Part shown: in pieces, positions 31,895 to 41,099 of the stretch
Layout: every line of letters starts with the position of its first letter
Numbering within the stretch: the first letter of the stretch is position 1
Source of the DNA: an uncultured delta proteobacterium
GTDB taxonomy: Bacteria; Myxococcota; Myxococcia; SLRQ01
DNA: 64,000 nt
NCBI GenBank assembly: GCA_963727485.1
Contig: CAVSGM010000011.1
Span: forward strand, 128,001-192,000
Direction of reading: 5' to 3'
Position numbers and translations under genes: made by a program
Notes under the pieces: generated by a model
Told to the model about the DNA's origin: nothing
Database searches by the model: none
Seen by the model: only the letters and a program-made list of their open reading frames with translations

Positions 31895-32626
31895 ATGCCG
31901 GCGCGTCCGGCCCGGAGGCGCGCTGCGGTCCGGCGCGGCGCGGCGATCGCCGTGTCCCTCGCCTTGACCGTGGGGCCCGCCCGAACCGGAAGGGCCGCCC
32001 CGCTCGAGGCCACGGCCCCCACGCCGCCCGCACCCGCGCCGCCCGCACCCGCGCCGCCCGTCCTCGCCCCCGTCCCCCTCCGCGTCCTCTCCACCGCCCC
32101 GGTCGCCATCGTCGTCCCGGCGGCGGCGGGCGCGCTCTACCTGCCCCTGGCCCTCACCTGGCGCCTCCACCCGGGCCTCGAGCTCCTCGTCGACGGCGCC
32201 TTCACCCGGGGCCCTTGGTTGGGCTGCGCCAGCCGGTCCACCGGGGGGTGGCTCTCGGTGGGGCTGGTGCGGATCTCGGCGCGGGGCACCGGGCCCCTGG
32301 TGGCGCTGAAGCTCACCGGGCGGGTGTTCGACACCCGCGGCGGGACGGCCAGCGGGTGGTTCGGGTGCAGCAGCGCCGACGTGGCGCTGCTCCAGGGCAC
32401 CGACGGCGAGGTCGGCGCCGGCGTGGACCTCGGATGGCGCTTCGCCTGGCGGCGGCTGGTGGTCGAGCCCCGCCTGGGGGTGGGCCTCGCCGTCTGCGCG
32501 AACTGCGTCGGCGGCTCGGCGTTCTTCGCGGGACCGGTGGTCCTCGGCGGCGACCGGACGCGCCGGTCCACCCGGGTGACGCTCACCCTGGACCTCGAGC
32601 TCCTACGCGTCGGGGTCCGGTTCTGA
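31895..32626 (+). CDS. Putative small outer-membrane beta-barrel protein
   Basis: Signal peptide, alternating beta strands, C-terminal LRVGVRF. Confidence 0.65.
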   Translation: MPARPARRRAAVRRGAAIAVSLALTVGPARTGRAAPLEATAPTPPAPAPPAPAPPVLAPVPLRVLSTAPVAIVVPAAAGALYLPLALTWRLHPGLELLVDGAFTRGPWLGCASRSTGGWLSVGLVRISARGTGPLVALKLTGRVFDTRGGTASGWFGCSSADVALLQGTDGEVGAGVDLGWRFAWRRLVVEPRLGVGLAVCANCVGGSAFFAGPVVLGGDRTRRSTRVTLTLDLELLRVGVRF

Positions 32627-33688
32627 GGCGGAGCCCCGCGCCGCGCCGCCGCCGGTCCCGGCCCCCACCGCGCGCGCCGGTCCGCGCACCGGGCGCCGGC
32701 CCGGGGGTGCGAGGTCGAGGTGGCGGGCGTAGGCACGGTGGACCGCCGCCGCCTCGGCGGCGAGGTCCCGGGCGAGGGGCTCGGGCGCGAGGACGATCAT
32801 GGCCGGGCCGAAGGCGCGGATGAAGCCCCGGAGCTCGGGGGTGTCGGTGACCGTGAGCTCGACCAGGGCCGAGCCGTCGGCCCGCCGCTGAAGGCGCTGG
32901 GTGGGGTGGAAGGGCGTCTCGGCGAGGACGTCGGCGGCGGCGCTGGAGACCTCGAGGCGCAGGGCCAGGGGCGGGCCGCCGGCGAAGACGCCCAGGGACT
33001 CGCGGAACCCGCTCTCGAGGTTGTGCTCCACCGGCGGCGGCTGGTGCGCCTGGCCCGGGGTGAGGACGCGGATGCGGTCGAGCCGGAGTGCGCGCGGGGT
33101 GCCGTCGAGGTCCTCGGCGACGAGGAGCAGGCCGTGGCGGTGGCGCCGGAGGCCCACGACGAAGACCTCGAGGTCCACGGGGCGCTGGCGGCCGAGGCCC
33201 TGGTAGCGCAGGTGGAGGCTGCGTCCGCTCCGGAGCGACGCGAGGATGTCGGCGAGGTGGGCCTCCCGGGCGGCGGGGTCGTCGGGGCCGTCGGCCGCCG
33301 GCGGGTCGGCGAGGACCGCGGCCACGGCGGCCACCTCGACCCCCGGCATCGTCGCCCGGAGCCGGGCCGCGGCCTCGGCGAGGGAGGCGGCGTAGGGTGC
33401 CGAGGTCTCGAGCTCGGTGGCCGCCATCCACACCGCCATCACCTCGGTGAGGGTCGGGGCTCGGGCGGGCTCCGCCGCCGGTGGGACCTCCAGGCGCCAG
33501 CGGGTGGTCGCCCCCTCCCGCTCGGGGACCAGGGGCAGTCCGGCGTCGCGAAGGGCCCCGAGGTCGCGATAGACGGTGCGCGCCGACACCCCGAGCGCCG
33601 CGGCCAGCTCGGCCGCCGAGGCGCCCCGCCGCCGAGCCTCCAGGTGCTCGACCAGGCGCCACCTTCGCTCACGGGGGTCGGATCGCAT
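32603..33688 (-). CDS. HTH-WYL-WCX transcriptional regulator (YafY/PafC-like)
   Basis: AAELAAALGVSARTVYRDL wHTH; RALRLDRI WYL-domain motif; HPTQ and FIRAFGP...VLAPEPL WCX region. Confidence 0.9.
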   Translation of the reverse strand: MRSDPRERRWRLVEHLEARRRGASAAELAAALGVSARTVYRDLGALRDAGLPLVPEREGATTRWRLEVPPAAEPARAPTLTEVMAVWMAATELETSAPYAASLAEAAARLRATMPGVEVAAVAAVLADPPAADGPDDPAAREAHLADILASLRSGRSLHLRYQGLGRQRPVDLEVFVVGLRRHRHGLLLVAEDLDGTPRALRLDRIRVLTPGQAHQPPPVEHNLESGFRESLGVFAGGPPLALRLEVSSAAADVLAETPFHPTQRLQRRADGSALVELTVTDTPELRGFIRAFGPAMIVLAPEPLARDLAAEAAAVHRAYARHLDLAPPGRRPVRGPARAVGAGTGGGAARGSASEPDPDA

Positions 33689-33709
33689 CGCACCACCATG
33701 CACCAACCT

Positions 33710-33728
33710 CGTGACGGATCCGGTCACG
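33710..33728. promoter_or_regulatory. Palindromic putative WYL-regulator operator
   Basis: Perfect inverted repeat CGTGAC-N7-GTCACG in the ~95-bp divergent intergenic region. Confidence 0.6.
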
Positions 33729-33782
33729 CGCAACCGCACGCGGGTCCCAGGGCGTGATAAACCTCGGGCATCCGGAGGATCC

Positions 33783-34775
33783 ATGCCGAACGTCGCCCTG
33801 CGTCCCAAGACCAACCTCTCGCTCTTCCGCCGAGTGGCCATCGGTACCTGGCACACCGTGGGCGACCCCACCGTCTACGGGAGCATGGACCTGCGCCTGG
33901 ACGAGGCCCTGCGCTACATCGAGGCCTACCGCGACGCCACCGGCCGCCGGCTGACCTTGAGCCACCTGATGGCGAAGGCCGTCGCCGCGGTCTTGAGCGA
34001 GCACCCCGACGCCAACGCCATCCTCCGCTTCAACCGCATCTACCTCCGCGACCAGGTGAAGCTCTTCTTCCAGGTGGCGCTGGAGGATCCCGAGACCGGT
34101 GAGGTCGACCTCTCCGGGGTCACCGTCGAGGACCCGGAGGACAAGACCCTCGGCGAGGTCCTCGACGTCTTCGAGCGCCGGGTGAAGAAGGTGAAGAAGC
34201 AGGAAGGCGACGAGCTCGCCCAGAGCCGGGGGATGTTCCGGTGGATCCCCTCGCTGCTCCTCAACTTCGTGCTCTCGCTCTCCGGCTTCCTCGCCTACAC
34301 CCTCAACCTCGACCTCTCGTCGGTCGGGGTGCCCCGGGACGCCTTCGGGTCGGCGATGATCACCAACATCGGGTCGCTGGGCCTCGAGGAGGCCTACGTG
34401 CCGCTGGTGCCCTACAGCCGGGTGCCCCTGCTCATCGCCATGGGCTCGGTGCGGACGATGCCGGTGGTCGAGGACGGCGAGGTGATCACCGGGAAGGTGA
34501 TGCGGGTCTCGGTGACCTTCGATCACCGGATCCTCGACGGCGCCCACGCCGCGGCCATGGCCAAGACCGTGCGCGCGTGGATGGAGCACCCCTTCGACCA
34601 CTTCGACGCCATCGAGGACGCGGCGGCGGCCTCCGCGGCCCGCGAGGCGCTCCCCGAGGCCGGCGGCGCCGCGCACGCCGCCGCGGACGCCGGCGCCGCC
34701 CGCGATCCCGCGGACGCCGGCGCCGACGCCGCCACCGATCCCGCGGTCCGCCTCGCCGAGGGCGGCGGCGACTGA
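33783..34775 (+). CDS. 2-oxoacid dehydrogenase E2-like acyltransferase, catalytic domain only
   Basis: ITNIGSLG and TFDHRILDG (HxxxDG) motifs; no lipoyl or E3-binding domain. Confidence 0.88.
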   Translation: MPNVALRPKTNLSLFRRVAIGTWHTVGDPTVYGSMDLRLDEALRYIEAYRDATGRRLTLSHLMAKAVAAVLSEHPDANAILRFNRIYLRDQVKLFFQVALEDPETGEVDLSGVTVEDPEDKTLGEVLDVFERRVKKVKKQEGDELAQSRGMFRWIPSLLLNFVLSLSGFLAYTLNLDLSSVGVPRDAFGSAMITNIGSLGLEEAYVPLVPYSRVPLLIAMGSVRTMPVVEDGEVITGKVMRVSVTFDHRILDGAHAAAMAKTVRAWMEHPFDHFDAIEDAAAASAAREALPEAGGAAHAAADAGAARDPADAGADAATDPAVRLAEGGGD

Positions 34776-36310
34776 TGCCGATCCCGGCGCCGCGGACCGT
34801 GGTCCTCACCGAGGACCAGCAGGCGGTCGTGGCGCGGTGGCGCGCCGCCCCGGACCGGGCCACCCGGGAACGGATCTACGCCGAGGCGCTGGCCGAGGGC
34901 TACGCCCCGCGCTTCGCCGAGCTGCCCCTCCACGGGGGCGTCGCCGGCCAGCCGAGGCCCCGGGCCCTGGTGAGCCTGGTGGGCCACGCCTGGCAGCCGG
35001 CGGCGCTCATGGCCGCCTGGGTCCGCCCCGAGCGCCTGCTCCTGCTGCGCACCCGGGAGCCCGCCGCCGGCGCCCCCTCGGCCCTGGAGCTGGTCAGCCG
35101 CCTCTCGGGCCTGTCCCTCGACCGCATCGAGCACCAGTGGGTCCTCGGGGGCGGCGAGCTGGCGGTCTACGAGGAGATCCGCGACTTCCTCGCCCGGGGG
35201 CGTCTCAAGCCCGACGAGCTGGCCATCGACGTCACCGGGGGCAAGAAGTCCATGGCGGTGGCGGCGGCGCTCGCGGGCTTCCTCGCCGGGGCGCGGCTGC
35301 TCTACGTCGACTACCTCGAGGTCGACCGGGGGACGCCGGTGCCGGGGACCGAGTACCCGCGGCTCCTGGCGAACCCGCTCGCCATCCTCGGCGAGATCGA
35401 CATCGACCGGATCCGCGAGGCCTTCGACGGGGGCCACTACCTCGACGCCGAGCGCCGCGCCGAGGACCTCGCCCGGCGCCTCTACGAGCCCTGGACCGCC
35501 GAGGCCCTGGGGCTCCTCGCCCGGGGCTACGGCGCCTGGCACCGCTTCGACTTCGAGCGGGCGCGCTCGGCCCTCGCCGAGCTGCGCACCCTCCTCGACG
35601 CCCGGGCGGGCCACGCCGGCGCCGCCTGGGTGGGCCGGGTGCGCCCGGTCCTCGACGGGCACCTCGCCCGCCTCGGCGCCCTCCTCGAGGCCACCGCCAA
35701 GCCCGAGACCGTGGCCGCCGGGATGCCCGGGGTCCTCAACCACCTGGCGGCGTCGGCGCGGGCCCTGGCGCAGGAGGACCTCGACGACGCCACCCTGCTC
35801 CTCTACGCCACGGTGGAGCGCTACGTGGATCTCTGCCTCTGGGTCGACGCCGGCCTCACCGACCGGGACCCGGACTACGGGCGCCTCGAGGGGCGCCTCG
35901 ACCTCGACCGGTACCGCGACCTCGGCAGCCGCCTCTTCGAGGGCCCGGCCCCCGAGCGCCCCCAGGGGCCGCTCCTCTACCTCGCGGCCGTGCGCCTCCT
36001 GGCCGCCCTGGCCCCCGAGCGCCTCCCCGATGGCGATCTCGGCTGGGTGCGGGGCCTGGGACGGATGCGCAACGAGCTGGTCCACGGCCTGGTGCCCACC
36101 CACCCGGGTGCCGGGGAGGTGGCCTCGAAGCTCGGCCGGGTCAAGGGGCTCCTGGCGCCCGCCGCCGGGGGCGAGGCGGCGCTGGAGGCCGAGCTCGCCG
36201 CCCTGCGCTTCCCGGAGATTCTGATCCCGGGCGCCCTCCGGGGCTGCGTCCGCCGGTCCCGGCGCCGGCGTCGACACCAGCCGGCCTTTGGGTGTACCCC
36301 GGAGCCATGA
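34775..36310 (+). CDS. CARF-HEPN protein (TIGR02710-like CRISPR-associated family)
   Basis: LVSLVGHAWQP, IDVTGGKKSM (CARF DxTGGxK), LLYVDY..PVPGTE..LANP, C-terminal RNELVH (HEPN RxxxxH). True 3' end may be near 36224. Confidence 0.85.
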   Translation: MPIPAPRTVVLTEDQQAVVARWRAAPDRATRERIYAEALAEGYAPRFAELPLHGGVAGQPRPRALVSLVGHAWQPAALMAAWVRPERLLLLRTREPAAGAPSALELVSRLSGLSLDRIEHQWVLGGGELAVYEEIRDFLARGRLKPDELAIDVTGGKKSMAVAAALAGFLAGARLLYVDYLEVDRGTPVPGTEYPRLLANPLAILGEIDIDRIREAFDGGHYLDAERRAEDLARRLYEPWTAEALGLLARGYGAWHRFDFERARSALAELRTLLDARAGHAGAAWVGRVRPVLDGHLARLGALLEATAKPETVAAGMPGVLNHLAASARALAQEDLDDATLLLYATVERYVDLCLWVDAGLTDRDPDYGRLEGRLDLDRYRDLGSRLFEGPAPERPQGPLLYLAAVRLLAALAPERLPDGDLGWVRGLGRMRNELVHGLVPTHPGAGEVASKLGRVKGLLAPAAGGEAALEAELAALRFPEILIPGALRGCVRRSRRRRRHQPAFGCTPEP

Positions 36311-36735: not shown

Positions 36736-36814
36736 GCGACCGGGCGGGTGAGCGGCGCGGGGAACGGGAGCCGGCGTAGGCGCTGCGCCTCGTGGTTCGG
36801 CTGACCTGCGCCGT

Positions 36815-37281
36815 AGCGATGCGCCGCTTGAATCGGCGCACATCGCGAGGCGACGCTGGGCCGACGCCGGACGCTGCCGGCGACACGGCACGGGCGCGCC
36901 CACGGCAGGATGCGGGCGCCGAGTGATCTACCGGCGTTCGCGGGGCGGCCGGCCCTGCGCCACCGGGTGCCTGCACCCCCACGCGGGCGCGCCCGCCGGC
37001 GACCGGCCGCGGGGCCGCCGGTGCGACGCGCCTCTTGAATCGGCGCACATCGCGAGGCGACGCCGGGCCGACGCCGGGCCGACGCCGCACCGACGCCCTC
37101 CGCTGCCGGCGATACGGCACGGGCGCACCCAGGGCGGGATGCAGGCGCCGAGTGATCCACCTCCGCTCGCGCGGCGGCCGGCCCTGCGCCACCGGGTGCC
37201 TGCAGCCCCACGCGGGCGCGCCCGCCGGCGACCGGCCGCGTAGCCGCCGGTGCGACGCGCCGCTTGAATCGGCGCACATCC
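36815..37281. repeat. Imperfect intergenic tandem repeat (units of 207 and 229 bp) with three hairpin cores
   Basis: TTGAATCGGCGCACATC at 36828, 37035 and 37264; the intervening segments are mutually homologous. Confidence 0.85.
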
Positions 37282-37323
37282 CGGGCAAACCACGCTCCCG
37301 CGGCCCCCGACCCCCTGCGCCTC

Positions 37324-39294
37324 TCAGTGCAGATCGGCAGCCAGGATCGTCCGGAGCGCCGCAGCGGCCGCGGCGTCGTCGCCCTCGCCCCGGGCCGCTG
37401 CGTAGGCCCGCGCCGGCGCCCGGAACCGCGACTCGGGCCCCAGCGGCAGGCGCGACAGGAACCGCCCAAGCCGCGCCTCGAGGTCGGGGGGCAGCACGGC
37501 CGCCGCCCCACCGTCCGCCTCCAGGGCCCGCGCCACCCGCACCGCCGCCACCCGCCCCAGGGCGTGGTCCGTCACCGGCCCCGGGTGCGCCCCGGCCAGC
37601 GCCGCCAGCCGCGCCTCCCACCGGCGCGCCCGGGCCCCGTCGCCGGCCGCGAGGCAGGCCTCCACCGCCCGCGCGCAGGCGCCGGCGTGGGGCCAGGGCC
37701 CGGTGCCGTCGGCGTCGAGGCGGTCGGCCAGCGCGGTGAGCGCCCCGTCGAGGTCCCCGTCCGGCGCCGCGGCCTCCACCCGCAGGGCCTCGTAGGCGAG
37801 GTAGAGCTCGTTGGCCCGGCGCCATCCGTCGCTCATCCCCGGCTCCCGGTCGCTCTCGGCCCGGGCCTCGGCGAGCGCCGCCCGGGCGGCGTCGACGCGC
37901 CCGAGCCGCGCCAGGGCCCCGATGCGGTAGGCGCGGCCGATGTTCGCCTCCCAGGGGGCGGCGTCGGCGAAGCGGGCCAGGGCGTCGTCGAGGCGGACCA
38001 GGGCCTCGGCGTCCCGGCCGGCGTGGGCCTCGACCCGGCCGGCGGTGGAGGCGATGCGCGCGCCCTCCACCGCGTCGGCGGCGGCGTCGGCGGCCGCCTC
38101 GGCCTCGGCGAGGTAGGCCCGGGCCGCCTCGAAGTGGTGCCGGTCGATCATCCCGCTCGCCTCGACGTTCCGGGCCCAGGCGACCAGCGCCGGCGGGGGA
38201 CGGCCCTCGGTGAGGCGGGCGTCGAGGGCGGCGGCGACCTCCGCGGCGGCCTCCGGGCGTCCGGCGTGGGACCGGTAGGCGCACAGGAGGGTGAGCAGGG
38301 CCAGGTGGGCGGTCCACACGGCCACCGGCTCCCGTCCCAGGGCCGTCGCGATCTCGGGCCAGGCCTCGGCGAGGGCCTCGAGGCGGGCGGCGAGCACCGG
38401 CACCGGCACCGCCCGCACCCGGTCGAGCCACCGGGCCTCCTCCACCGCCTCCAGCCACGCCGGGAGGGTCGCCGGGCGGAAGGGCCCGGGGGCCAGGCCC
38501 ACCGCGTCGGCGAGGGCGTCGAGGTCTTCGACGGGGATCACCTCGGGTCCCCCGGGGGGCGAGGGCACGGCGAAGCCCACGGGGACGAAGAGCCGGCGCA
38601 CGCAGGCCCGCTCCCGGTGGAGGCCCACGACCTTGGCGTGGACCCCCCGGCGGGCGCCCTCGGGGAGCGTGAGGCGCCCGGCGTCGTCGAGGTCGCCGGT
38701 GACGGCGAAGCCCGGGTCCAGGGGCACGTCGCTCCAGGCCGAGAGGAGCATCAGGGCGAGCGCGGCGCCCATGGAGCCGCCCTCGACCCGGGGGGCGGCG
38801 GCCGCCGGGAGCTCGTCGAGGACCACCCGGTGCCACCCGAGGCGCGGGGTCAGGGGGCGGGTGCCCCGGCGCCGGGCGGCCCAGGCGAACGCGCGCTCGG
38901 CGGCGGCGTCGGCGGCGGCGTCGGCGGGGGCGGCGCCGGGCCAGAACCGGGGCCACGGCCGCTCGGCGGGGCCGAGGCGCTCGAGGCGCACCCGGAGCAC
39001 GGCGCCCAGGTCGTCGTGGCTGGAGAGCCACCAGGTCGTCCCCGGGGCCGGCACCGGTGGCCGGGTGGCCCGCGCGGGGATGGCGGCGGCGTCGCCGACG
39101 GCGAGCTCGAGGCGGGCGGCGAGGGCGTCCCTGCGCGCCGGGGCGAGGGCGCCGGCGGGGATCGCCCGGGCGGCGTTGACCGCACGCTGGCGCGCAGGAC
39201 CCCGGGCGGGATCCCCGGGGTCCACGAGGCTCTCGAGCCGGCCCAGGGCCTGCTCCAGGGCGAGGACCGGACGCAGGCGCGTGTCGTCGCTCAT
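37324..39294 (-). CDS. Lon-like (S16) protease domain without AAA+ module, fused to TPR-like repeats
   Basis: VEGGSMGAALALMLLSA...FAVTGDLDDAGRL...GVHAKV...LFVP...IPVEDLDAL matches the Lon proteolytic domain pattern (Ser-Lys dyad); C-terminal helical repeats. Confidence 0.8.
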   Translation of the reverse strand: MSDDTRLRPVLALEQALGRLESLVDPGDPARGPARQRAVNAARAIPAGALAPARRDALAARLELAVGDAAAIPARATRPPVPAPGTTWWLSSHDDLGAVLRVRLERLGPAERPWPRFWPGAAPADAAADAAAERAFAWAARRRGTRPLTPRLGWHRVVLDELPAAAAPRVEGGSMGAALALMLLSAWSDVPLDPGFAVTGDLDDAGRLTLPEGARRGVHAKVVGLHRERACVRRLFVPVGFAVPSPPGGPEVIPVEDLDALADAVGLAPGPFRPATLPAWLEAVEEARWLDRVRAVPVPVLAARLEALAEAWPEIATALGREPVAVWTAHLALLTLLCAYRSHAGRPEAAAEVAAALDARLTEGRPPPALVAWARNVEASGMIDRHHFEAARAYLAEAEAAADAAADAVEGARIASTAGRVEAHAGRDAEALVRLDDALARFADAAPWEANIGRAYRIGALARLGRVDAARAALAEARAESDREPGMSDGWRRANELYLAYEALRVEAAAPDGDLDGALTALADRLDADGTGPWPHAGACARAVEACLAAGDGARARRWEARLAALAGAHPGPVTDHALGRVAAVRVARALEADGGAAAVLPPDLEARLGRFLSRLPLGPESRFRAPARAYAAARGEGDDAAAAAALRTILAADLH

Positions 39295-39307
39295 CGGACG
39301 GAGGGCA

Positions 39308-40297
39308 TCATCCCTCGCTGGCGGGCGGCGGGTCGAGGGGCAGGGTCTCCGTCTGCTCGCCGTCGCGGCCCCGCCAGCGGACCGAGAGGGTGTGGGCGCC
39401 GTCGCCGGTGCCCGAAAGCGGCACCCACCACGAGAGGGCCACGTCCGAGCGCTGGGGCGCCGCGGGCCCCGGCGGGTCGAGGGTCACCGAGACCAGGCGC
39501 TCGAAGCGCCCGTCGGCGTCGCGGATCACCAGCCCCGGGGGCGCGTCGTCGTGCTCGGCGAGGCCGTGGGCGTGGACGAGCACCCGGCCGTCGAGGAGCC
39601 GGGCCACCGGGGGCCCGAGCGGCCGCTCGAGGATCCGGGCGAGCTCGGTCTCGGCGTCGGCGCCGTAGTGGAAGGCGACCTCGGCGTCGGCGGCGCGGCG
39701 GGTGAGGGCGAGCGCCATCCGGGCGCCGATCAGCGGTCGGGCGAGCCAGCCGGCCACCGCCTCCCGGTGGGCGGCGAGCAGCAGGGGATCGAGCCACCAC
39801 GCCGGCTGGGCGGCGCGGGCCAGGGCCTCCAGCCAGGGGGCCTCCGGGCCCTCGGGGTCCTCGGCGAGGCCCCGGGCCACCTCGGTGGCGTGCCGGGCGC
39901 CGAGGACGTCGACCTCGCCGGCCCGGGCGAGGAGGGCGCGCTCCCGGGCCGCGGCGCCGATGCCCAGGGCCCACAGCAGGCTCTCGGCGTCGTCCCGGGC
40001 GGCGGCGACGGCGAAGGCCCGCCCGGGGCCGAGGCTGGCGAGCCCCTCGGCGGCGGTCTCCAGGGACCGGTCCGCGGCGGCGGCCACCGCCTCGGCCACC
40101 TCGCCCACCACGGTCTCCCGGAGCCAGGCGTCGAGGCGCCGGGCCAGGCCGTCGACCTCGTCGCTGCGCATGAGCCGGGCGGCGGCGAGGACCGCGACCA
40201 CCGGGTCGGCGCCCGGGTCGGCGAGGGCGTGGGCGAGGGCTTCGGGCAGCCAGTCCGGGAGGACGGCGAGGTCGTCGGAGGTCAGGGGCGCGCGCAT
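39308..40297 (-). CDS. Hypothetical protein (candidate anti-sigma or protease substrate)
   Basis: GGAG RBS, GC3-biased codons; helical N-terminal part (RDDAES, WW) and beta-rich C-terminal part; sits between the sigma and protease genes. Confidence 0.7.
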   Translation of the reverse strand: MRAPLTSDDLAVLPDWLPEALAHALADPGADPVVAVLAAARLMRSDEVDGLARRLDAWLRETVVGEVAEAVAAAADRSLETAAEGLASLGPGRAFAVAAARDDAESLLWALGIGAAARERALLARAGEVDVLGARHATEVARGLAEDPEGPEAPWLEALARAAQPAWWLDPLLLAAHREAVAGWLARPLIGARMALALTRRAADAEVAFHYGADAETELARILERPLGPPVARLLDGRVLVHAHGLAEHDDAPPGLVIRDADGRFERLVSVTLDPPGPAAPQRSDVALSWWVPLSGTGDGAHTLSVRWRGRDGEQTETLPLDPPPASEG

Positions 40298-40403
40298 CGG
40301 TCGGTCTCCAGGGCGACGGCGACCCCCGGCCGGCGAGTGGTCGGGCGCGGGTCTGGCGGGGCCGCCGTGTGGCGCCGACGCCCCCCTCGCGCGGCATCTG
40401 ACA

Positions 40404-41099
40404 TCAGGACTCGTCCTCCTCGCAGCCCACCAGGCGCACCAGGAGATCCGCCTCCGCCGGGGTGATCTCCCCGGTCTCGAGGAGGGCCTGCACCGCCTCG
40501 CACCCGGCGACCTTCCCCCGGCGTCGGTACTGGTAGATCCGGTCCCGGGCCCGGCGCAGCGCCACCTTGTCGTCCGGGTCGTCGGGGGCGGCCCACCGGG
40601 CGATCTGGGCGTCGATGTCGGTGCCGACGATCCGGGCCTCGAGGTGGACCCGGAGGTTGTGGCGGACCATCTCCAGGTCCCGCTCCCGGTGCAGGCGGGC
40701 GAGGGCCCCCTCGAGGCGGTCGAGGAGGGTCTCCATGTCCTGGCCGGCCAGGGGGTCGGGGGTGGCCGGGGCCCTTTGTTGCGGTGCATCATCCAGGTCC
40801 ACCAGGCGTCGCTCCCGGCGGATGACGTCGAGGACGTAGCGCTGGAGGATCCGGCTGCACCAGGCCCGGGCGGCGCGGTCGTCGTCGCCCCGGAACCGGG
40901 CCCGGCCCAGGCTCGCCTTGAGGACCACCTTCTGGATCGCCTCGTCGATGAGATCGTCCGAGGCCCGGTAGAACCGGCGGCGCACCACCCCCGGCGCGAA
41001 GTGCCGCAGCTCCTGGTAGAGGTGGCTGGCGGCGCGCTCACGGTCCATGCGGCTGGTCGCGTCCGAGGCGAGGATCTGGAGCCACTGGCACAGGCTCAT
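40404..41099 (-). CDS. Divergent ECF-type sigma factor
   Basis: Region-2-like DEAIQKVVLK...F...AWCSRILQRYVLDVIRR; region-4-like RDRIYQYRRRG. Confidence 0.72.
   Translation of the reverse strand: MSLCQWLQILASDATSRMDRERAASHLYQELRHFAPGVVRRRFYRASDDLIDEAIQKVVLKASLGRARFRGDDDRAARAWCSRILQRYVLDVIRRERRLVDLDDAPQQRAPATPDPLAGQDMETLLDRLEGALARLHRERDLEMVRHNLRVHLEARIVGTDIDAQIARWAAPDDPDDKVALRRARDRIYQYRRRGKVAGCEAVQALLETGEITPAEADLLVRLVGCEEDES

Follow-up and report, generated by a model that had tools for sequence, protein, structure and literature searches.

In the CalpL-CalpT-CalpS system, which is tied to type III CRISPR, the adjacent genes encode a Ser-Lys Lon protease that lacks an ATPase and has a helical N-domain, a 33-35 kDa two-domain partner and a sigma factor resembling the extracytoplasmic function (ECF) type (10.1101/2021.12.06.471393; 10.1101/2024.05.08.593097). 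The partner, CalpT, has a C-terminal immunoglobulin (Ig)-like domain (DUF2080) and an Ala-containing linker. It is cut after alanine (VLRHVA/ST or LAA/A) between domains of 23-24 kDa and, for the Ig-like one, 10 kDa (10.1101/2024.05.08.593097; 10.1101/2021.12.06.471393), and the N-terminal fragment of the C. acidaminovorans protein is predicted to carry a C-degron (10.1101/2024.05.08.593097). The gene set and the protein layout recur in a three-gene operon (the "trio") of an uncultured delta proteobacterium, located in a 64,000-nucleotide stretch of DNA, the window (contig CAVSGM010000011.1, positions 128,001 to 192,000), where the Ig-like domain is predicted and both the cut and the degron are suggested only by analogy. 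The trio encodes an ECF-like sigma factor, a "middle protein" and a Lon protease with a tetratricopeptide repeat (TPR) region. It probably constitutes a cytoplasmic protease-gated transcription switch that follows the CalpL-CalpT-CalpS logic with a different anti-sigma factor and with TPR in place of SAVED.

The two systems differ in several respects. CalpL has a SAVED domain, whereas the trio protease has TPR and thus no recognised cyclic tetra-adenylate input. The N-domain of CalpT is MazF-like, whereas that of the middle protein is all-helical; CalpT is modelled to bind sigma by its N-terminal part only, whereas the middle protein is predicted to use both domains. The residues of the catalytic dyad are 41 positions apart in CalpL and 47 or 43 in the Lon-TPR proteins. 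Finally, CalpL-CalpT-CalpS is linked to type III CRISPR, whereas neither Cas10 nor RAMP was found in five genomes with Lon-TPR. The trio would therefore work like CalpL-CalpT-CalpS without being a member of that system, as it fails on SAVED, the MazF-like domain and the type III linkage.

Other described systems share parts of this design (see also PMC11229360). In the type III-E Craspase/CASP system (Csx29 TPR-CHAT, Csx30 and CASP-sigma), a TPR-regulated protease cleaves a sigma inhibitor, the separate fragments of which no longer inhibit (PMC10028731). That protease is a His-Cys CHAT enzyme with an RNA guide, whereas the trio has a Ser-Lys Lon protease; its locus lacks Cas7-11 and Csx31 genes, and its genome gave no RAMP match. 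DdvA-DdvS of Myxococcus xanthus likewise joins an ECF sigma/anti-sigma pair to a TPR-protease sensor; release by proteolysis has been proposed, and the system controls a defence island (PMC11506125). DdvA, however, is a single transmembrane protein with periplasmic TPR-CHAT and a zinc anti-sigma domain, whereas the trio consists of three separate soluble proteins. The SAVED-CHAT/PCaspase/PCc-sigma system also groups a protease gene with a sigma gene in Myxococcota (10.1101/2023.06.23.546230), but it is a caspase cascade activated by cyclic tri-adenylate, with a kinase and an inhibitor, in which the sigma factor itself is cleaved, unlike what is proposed for the trio. No publication on a Lon-TPR/anti-sigma/sigma operon was found in a search of mostly open literature, supplementary gene-neighbourhood tables lying outside its scope. 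A preliminary description of the window, made from the sequence alone, did not recognise the architecture as described. This holds for the operon, but the logic itself is known from CalpL-CalpT-CalpS.

Open reading frame (ORF) analysis confirmed the three co-oriented, closely spaced genes of that description and their coordinates (Table 1). The gaps are 106 bp between the sigma and middle genes and 13 bp between the middle and protease genes. The G+C content at third codon positions is 0.95-0.98 in the three frames, and the base composition of the locus equals that of the source genome (G000). The strongest hydrophobic 19-mer across the three proteins does not exceed 1.34 on the Kyte-Doolittle scale, so that none has a segment of transmembrane strength.

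The sigma protein is divergent, as had been noted. It matches sigma region 2 in TIGR02937 (E 1.2e-6) and in Pfam Sigma70_r2 (E 7.4e-5, below the cut-off). Its match to the CASP-sigma family NF041236 (E 0.008) is far below the cut-off. The C-terminal half is divergent, with a conserved RRARDRxYQYRRRG motif. A conserved promoter motif was not found in five sigma upstream regions.

The middle protein, previously described as a soluble two-part protein of about 330 residues, indeed has two domains. The AlphaFold2 (AF2) model, computed with 25 homologs in the alignment, has a mean predicted local distance difference test score (pLDDT) of 91 and consists of a helical part, a low-confidence linker and an Ig-like sandwich. 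The residues R101, D102, E105, S106, D130 and W167 of the helical domain are invariant. Among 1.84 billion representative sequences there are 35 matches at E<=0.001, the protein itself included. Pfam, NCBIfam and PADLOC gave no match (Pfam is also blank for 15 homologs), no solved homolog was found in the PDB, Foldseek returned 0 matches at E<=0.001, the ESM Atlas gave no usable match, phage sequences gave none, and no RNA holder is listed. The best fold match has a Z of 6.7 and is nothing specific, with no CalpT chains among the matches listed; the Ig-like sandwich has generic fold matches with Z up to 5.8.

Complex prediction argues for binding of the middle protein to the sigma factor. The score was 0.76 (0.76, 0.83 and 0.73 in separate runs), compared with 0.01 for the best of three controls. 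At least 79% of the contacts agree between runs, and the partner pLDDT is at least 83. Of the 157 solved pairs 116 attained the score mark, as did 2 of the 215 mismatched ones, a calibration that is only roughly applicable because the alignments used here were our own. As the middle protein has no solved homolog, a score arising from a memorised structure is less likely. In the model, sigma residues 53-95 (within the sigma2 match), 121-159 and 201-230 are contacted, mainly by middle-protein residues 105-201 and 226-250. The linker residues 202-225 are not named in the predicted interface. The model thus supports a sigma factor gripped by both domains of the middle protein, with the Ala-containing linker free. 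It also supports a separate anti-sigma family, distinct from CalpT in that the N-domain is predicted to be helical and not MazF-like. The likeness to CalpT proposed earlier therefore holds for the two-domain layout and the predicted sigma binding, but not for the family.

The candidate cleavage site lies in this linker. Position 208 is Ala in 12 and Ala or Ser in 17 of 25 homologs, against a background Ala frequency of 17%; in a second alignment, with hand-chosen rows, the corresponding counts are 12 and 16 of 18.

The Lon domain of the third protein was assigned at the level of sequence, since whole-chain fold searches are filled by TPR matches. The protein matches LonB of M. jannaschii (1xhk; phmmer E 7e-6, family profile E 1.5e-8) and, below the cut-off, Pfam Lon_C (E 0.0076). 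The serine of the GGS motif, Ser174, is followed 47 residues later by Lys221, as the preliminary description had it. Lys221 is the sole lysine of the 656-residue protein; a Walker A motif is therefore impossible. Both dyad residues are invariant in six of six homologs from full or partial loci, with a spacing of 47 in five and 43 in one. None of the six has a Walker A motif, so the AAA+ module of canonical LonA/LonB is missing. The TPR-like helices reported after the Lon domain appear in the AF2 model as a helical region across residues 275-655, the best fold matches of which are Rap, MalT domain III and NprR (Z 20-23). Neither CHAT (Pfam and NCBIfam scans) nor any PADLOC family matched the protein, and plasmid sequences contained no match.

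Co-occurrence of the three genes across genomes was found. The order sigma-middle-protease is kept in five genomes (G000, G002, G003, G401 and G840), three of which (G000, G002 and G003) are kin from one family, f1, and hence not independent. A metagenome contig (L021) begins inside the middle gene and runs on into the protease gene. For G840, hhalign gave 92.6% for the middle protein and 99.8% for the protease. At E<=1e-8 the protease profile had matches in 5 of the 368 class genomes: G000, G002, G003 and G840 with Lon and TPR, and G346 with TPR only. A second sample of 401 genomes, drawn around the Polyangiales genome G401, gave 9 matches, G401 over its full length and eight others mainly in the Lon domain; in these eight, no profile match to the trio sigma or middle family was found nearby. 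E-values of proteins that themselves stood in the profile alignments were set aside as circular. Word-index searches gave only 2 and 1 protease proteins, missed known homologs, and are thus uninformative on range. In two samples of 401 genomes each, the middle-protein profile had matches in 15 and 5 genomes. Three further sigma homologs could be paired with three middle homologs indirectly, by equal lengths of their longest contigs (2149, 2567 and 11338). Weak middle-protein matches in G136, G468, G570 and G671 were dropped, having no sigma or protease context.

The switch would work as follows. The middle protein, as modelled, would clamp the sigma factor with two arms, the helical N-domain and the Ig-like C-domain, including contacts to sigma2. 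Lon-TPR would be an ATP-independent, site-specific Ser-Lys protease that stays inactive until its TPR region binds a protein or peptide ligand. The activated protease may then cut the exposed linker, most likely after Ala208 by analogy with CalpT, thereby splitting the clamp. The Ala-ended N-terminal fragment could, as suggested for CalpT, be removed by housekeeping proteases. The freed sigma factor would join RNA polymerase, and judging from the neighbours in related loci the response is most likely anti-phage or danger-related.

Table 1. Positions of the trio genes, their parts and neighbouring features in the window
Feature	Position	Strand	Basis
ECF-like sigma factor, 231 aa; sigma2 region at about residues 27-98	40404..41099	(-)	HMM (hidden Markov model) matches
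Middle protein, putative soluble anti-sigma, 329 aa; in no Pfam/NCBIfam/PADLOC family	39308..40297	(-)	Family scans and complex prediction
Middle protein N-domain, residues 1-186, all-helical, predicted sigma contact	39740..40297	(-)	AF2, complex model
Middle protein linker, residues 187-225, low-confidence in model	39623..39739	(-)	AF2, complex model
Ala208 of linker, candidate P1 residue	39674-39676	(-)	Alignment, analogy
Middle protein Ig-like beta-sandwich, residues 228-323	39329..39616	(-)	AF2, fold search
ATPase-less Lon(S16)-type protease with TPR, 656 aa: helical N-domain, Lon domain, TPR superhelix	37324..39294	(-)	
Putative catalytic Ser174 (starts at 38775)	38773..38775	(-)	Sequence motif
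Putative catalytic Lys221 (starts at 38634)	38632..38634	(-)	Sequence motif
TPR superhelix, residues 275-655, Rap/NprR/MalT-III-like; putative sensor	37330..38472	(-)	AF2, fold search
Csm6-like CARF-6H-HEPN neighbour, 511 aa, convergent with trio; functional link unproven	34775..36310	(+)	
Intergenic direct repeats, no part of the trio system	36809..37306	.	

The same sigma-middle pair is found with other proteases. In G269, the genes for a DESG protein, a sigma homolog (30% identity across 83% of the query), a homolog of the middle N-domain (hhalign 96.5%, linker SLAAAS) and a 439-residue protein with C-terminal SAVED matches (E 2.9e-6) form one locus. The same contig carries a Csx1-Csx20 gene, and Cas10-like and RAMP matches occur in the genome. 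The operon (L024 808-8858) is probably a CalpL-like Lon-SAVED operon near Csx1-Csx20 that uses the trio anti-sigma family instead of CalpT. In G511 (L035 3596-6107), a subtilase (E 3e-29) is encoded directly upstream of the same pair, with RAMP genes elsewhere in the genome. The G511 middle homolog has a different linker motif, EVIGCEDD, common to several database homologs, and possibly marks a subtilase-operated subfamily. By inspection, two more distant cousins, G592 and G642, have a DESG protein, a sigma-like gene, a partner and Lon-TPR; the partner carries its helical RDD..D..WW domain C-terminally, and hhalign gave only 13.8%. In G460 (L076 1082-6364), a sigma70 gene and an unknown ORF precede a 1072-residue fusion in which a helical domain and a LAAA-type linker are joined to Lon and TPR; this may be a single-chain form that cleaves itself. 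Together with the trio, the G269 and G511 loci are evidence, from sequence comparison, that proteases of the TPR, SAVED and subtilase types are all partnered with the anti-sigma family.

A broader proposal, held tentatively, is that the anti-sigma family (helical RDDxES..D..WW domain plus Ig) is, together with its sigma factor, a plug-in output module that can be wired to a Lon-SAVED protease sensing cyclic oligoadenylates, to a subtilase, or to Lon-TPR as an innate pattern receptor. In that last arrangement the protease might recognise a phage protein directly and switch on immune transcription by one cut of the two-armed clamp, with neither a nucleotide messenger nor an RNA guide.

Two other groups of proteins were seen in these searches. 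The DESG-motif family, unclassified and with the motif N-terminal, is encoded directly upstream of sigma in four loci (L024 3640-4638, L059 6428-7462, L079 1137-2213 and L078 7528-8505). It has no convincing Pfam, PADLOC or PDB match; presumably these are RNase H/DUF3800-like proteins. In L073, L074, L075 and L080, an ATPase-less Lon-like domain is followed by a hydrophobic segment and a region that by eye resembles CHASE2, one of the four having an N-terminal kinase-like domain.

Several observations weigh against the proposed switch. The Pfam scan found no region-4 match in the sigma protein. In the AF2 model of the protease, pLDDT falls below 50 over residues 82-124 and 147-172, and the Lon part is partly too low in confidence to show the dyad geometry. 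The conservation of Ala208 is moderate and depends on the alignment. In the 439-residue protein of G269, the Lon-like S...K is recognised by motif alone (hhalign 0.4%, no PDB or Pfam match). The f1 trio sits among ordinary genes, for an acyltransferase-like protein, an M28 peptidase, a Na/Ca exchanger and an ABC transporter, with no obvious defence island. Lastly, weak middle homologs (E 1e-7 to 8e-4) occur in 10 of 172 genomes of a second family, f2, and in four of four inspected 19-kb loci an ECF sigma gene adjoins the homolog with no Lon gene; the sigma-middle pair can therefore exist without an adjacent protease. The protease profile matched none of five f2-type or variant genomes. In the f2 loci L025-L028, the pair stands beside a metallophosphoesterase-like gene, near valS/nadC-like genes.

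Downstream of the trio, at a distance of about 1 kb, lies a convergent gene for a CARF-HEPN protein (PADLOC E 7e-40; TIGR02710 77.6 bits, cut-off 83.9) with an R-x4-H motif. Among 41 genomes it occurs in four, namely the three f1 trio genomes, each time in convergent orientation to the trio, and G020, in which its homolog lies within a type III-A-like operon (gene names assigned by eye, plus one RAMP match). It travels with acyltransferase-like and M28 peptidase-like genes, and inherited synteny among kin accounts for the linkage equally well as function. The acyltransferase-like gene (33786-34775, (+)), a stand-alone 2-oxoacid dehydrogenase acyltransferase catalytic domain, overlaps the CARF-HEPN start, a pairing repeated in G002 and G003; divergent from both is a gene for an HTH-WYL-WCX transcription regulator (32603-33871, (-)). 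The repeats between the convergent genes comprise a 209-nt unit present twice (89% identical) and a 62-nt unit present three times. In G840 the trio is beside a STAND-like ATPase, and that of the distant cousin G592 lies between genes for a DrmD-like helicase and a HEC-01A-like ATPase. A defence role of the locus is plausible.

These surroundings bear on an alternative that seems rather unlikely, namely that the same switch has been domesticated: a former type III ancillary module, the trio plus the Csm6-like RNase, would now serve a stress or developmental signal, its TPR region reading a host peptide as Rap and NprR do. The best TPR matches are indeed RRNPP peptide receptors, synteny with ordinary genes is kept in three genera, the composition of the locus is that of its genome, the CARF-HEPN gene is an orphan here but part of a type III-A operon in G020, and f2 has sigma-middle pairs without the protease. 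However, the spread is patchy (a Lon plus TPR match in 4 of 368 class genomes), the G840 and G592 loci lie among defence-type genes, and sharing a TPR fold reveals no ligand.

It is improbable that the protease is instead an effector or a negative-feedback enzyme, transcribed by the sigma factor and cutting sigma or other host proteins, with the anti-sigma released in another way. The f2 pairs without Lon would fit such an arrangement, as would PCaspase, which is reported to cleave its own sigma factor, PCc-sigma, in vitro (10.1101/2023.06.23.546230). Against this, the middle protein is still laid out like CalpT, its Ala linker exposed, and its family is paired with three protease types, always adjacent.

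As for CRISPR, no match to Cas10 (TIGR02577) or RAMP (PF03787) was found in G000, G002, G003, G401 and G840, all of them incomplete genomes (93-99% where given). On contig C2, G000 carries cas1 with an array of 34 repeats, whereas no array was found on the contig of the window. The cas1 lies in a 560-residue ORF resembling, by eye, a cas4-cas1 fusion, and is followed by the array (L060; G000:C2 1688276-1692240). The operon had been described as being without SAVED or CRISPR. This is correct in that it has TPR and not SAVED and that the five genomes lack Cas10 and RAMP matches, but CARF-HEPN is 1 kb away and an array with cas1 is present on another contig. In G000, SAVED was matched only on contig C3, which carries a fragmented CBASS-like locus (L085 3806-9089; G000:C3 ~719.8-725.1 kb) with two cyclases, E1-E2 and HNH-SAVED; several of its genes are in pieces, through either decay or assembly error. 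The SMODS HMM found no cyclase in five genomes, a result that is unreliable as G000 does carry cyclase genes. That the TPR region binds cyclic oligonucleotides, a CRISPR complex or the CARF-HEPN protein, making the trio a CRISPR/CBASS ancillary arm in trans, is more doubtful still: CARF-HEPN is linked in all three f1 trio genomes and was not found in two f1 genomes without the trio, G000 holds the CBASS-like locus and the cousins G592 and G642 carry Cas10 elsewhere, but the five trio genomes have no Cas10 or RAMP match, the G401 and G840 loci showed no CARF-HEPN ORF, and synteny among kin explains the CARF link equally. The three alternatives are not mutually exclusive.

In the characterised CRISPR protease/anti-sigma switches the trigger is a cyclic nucleotide or a guide RNA, and no signal has yet been assigned to the TPR-bearing DdvA. 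The trio contributes a supported anti-sigma role for a family that had no classification. Its fully soluble, three-protein form with a TPR sensor can be reconstituted, allowing a direct test of the TPR-protease input and the sigma output. Judging by the G269 locus, SAVED and TPR may be exchangeable as inputs to a single output module. Such a swap bears on the question of CRISPR ancillary signalling arising from, or decaying into, stand-alone signalling.

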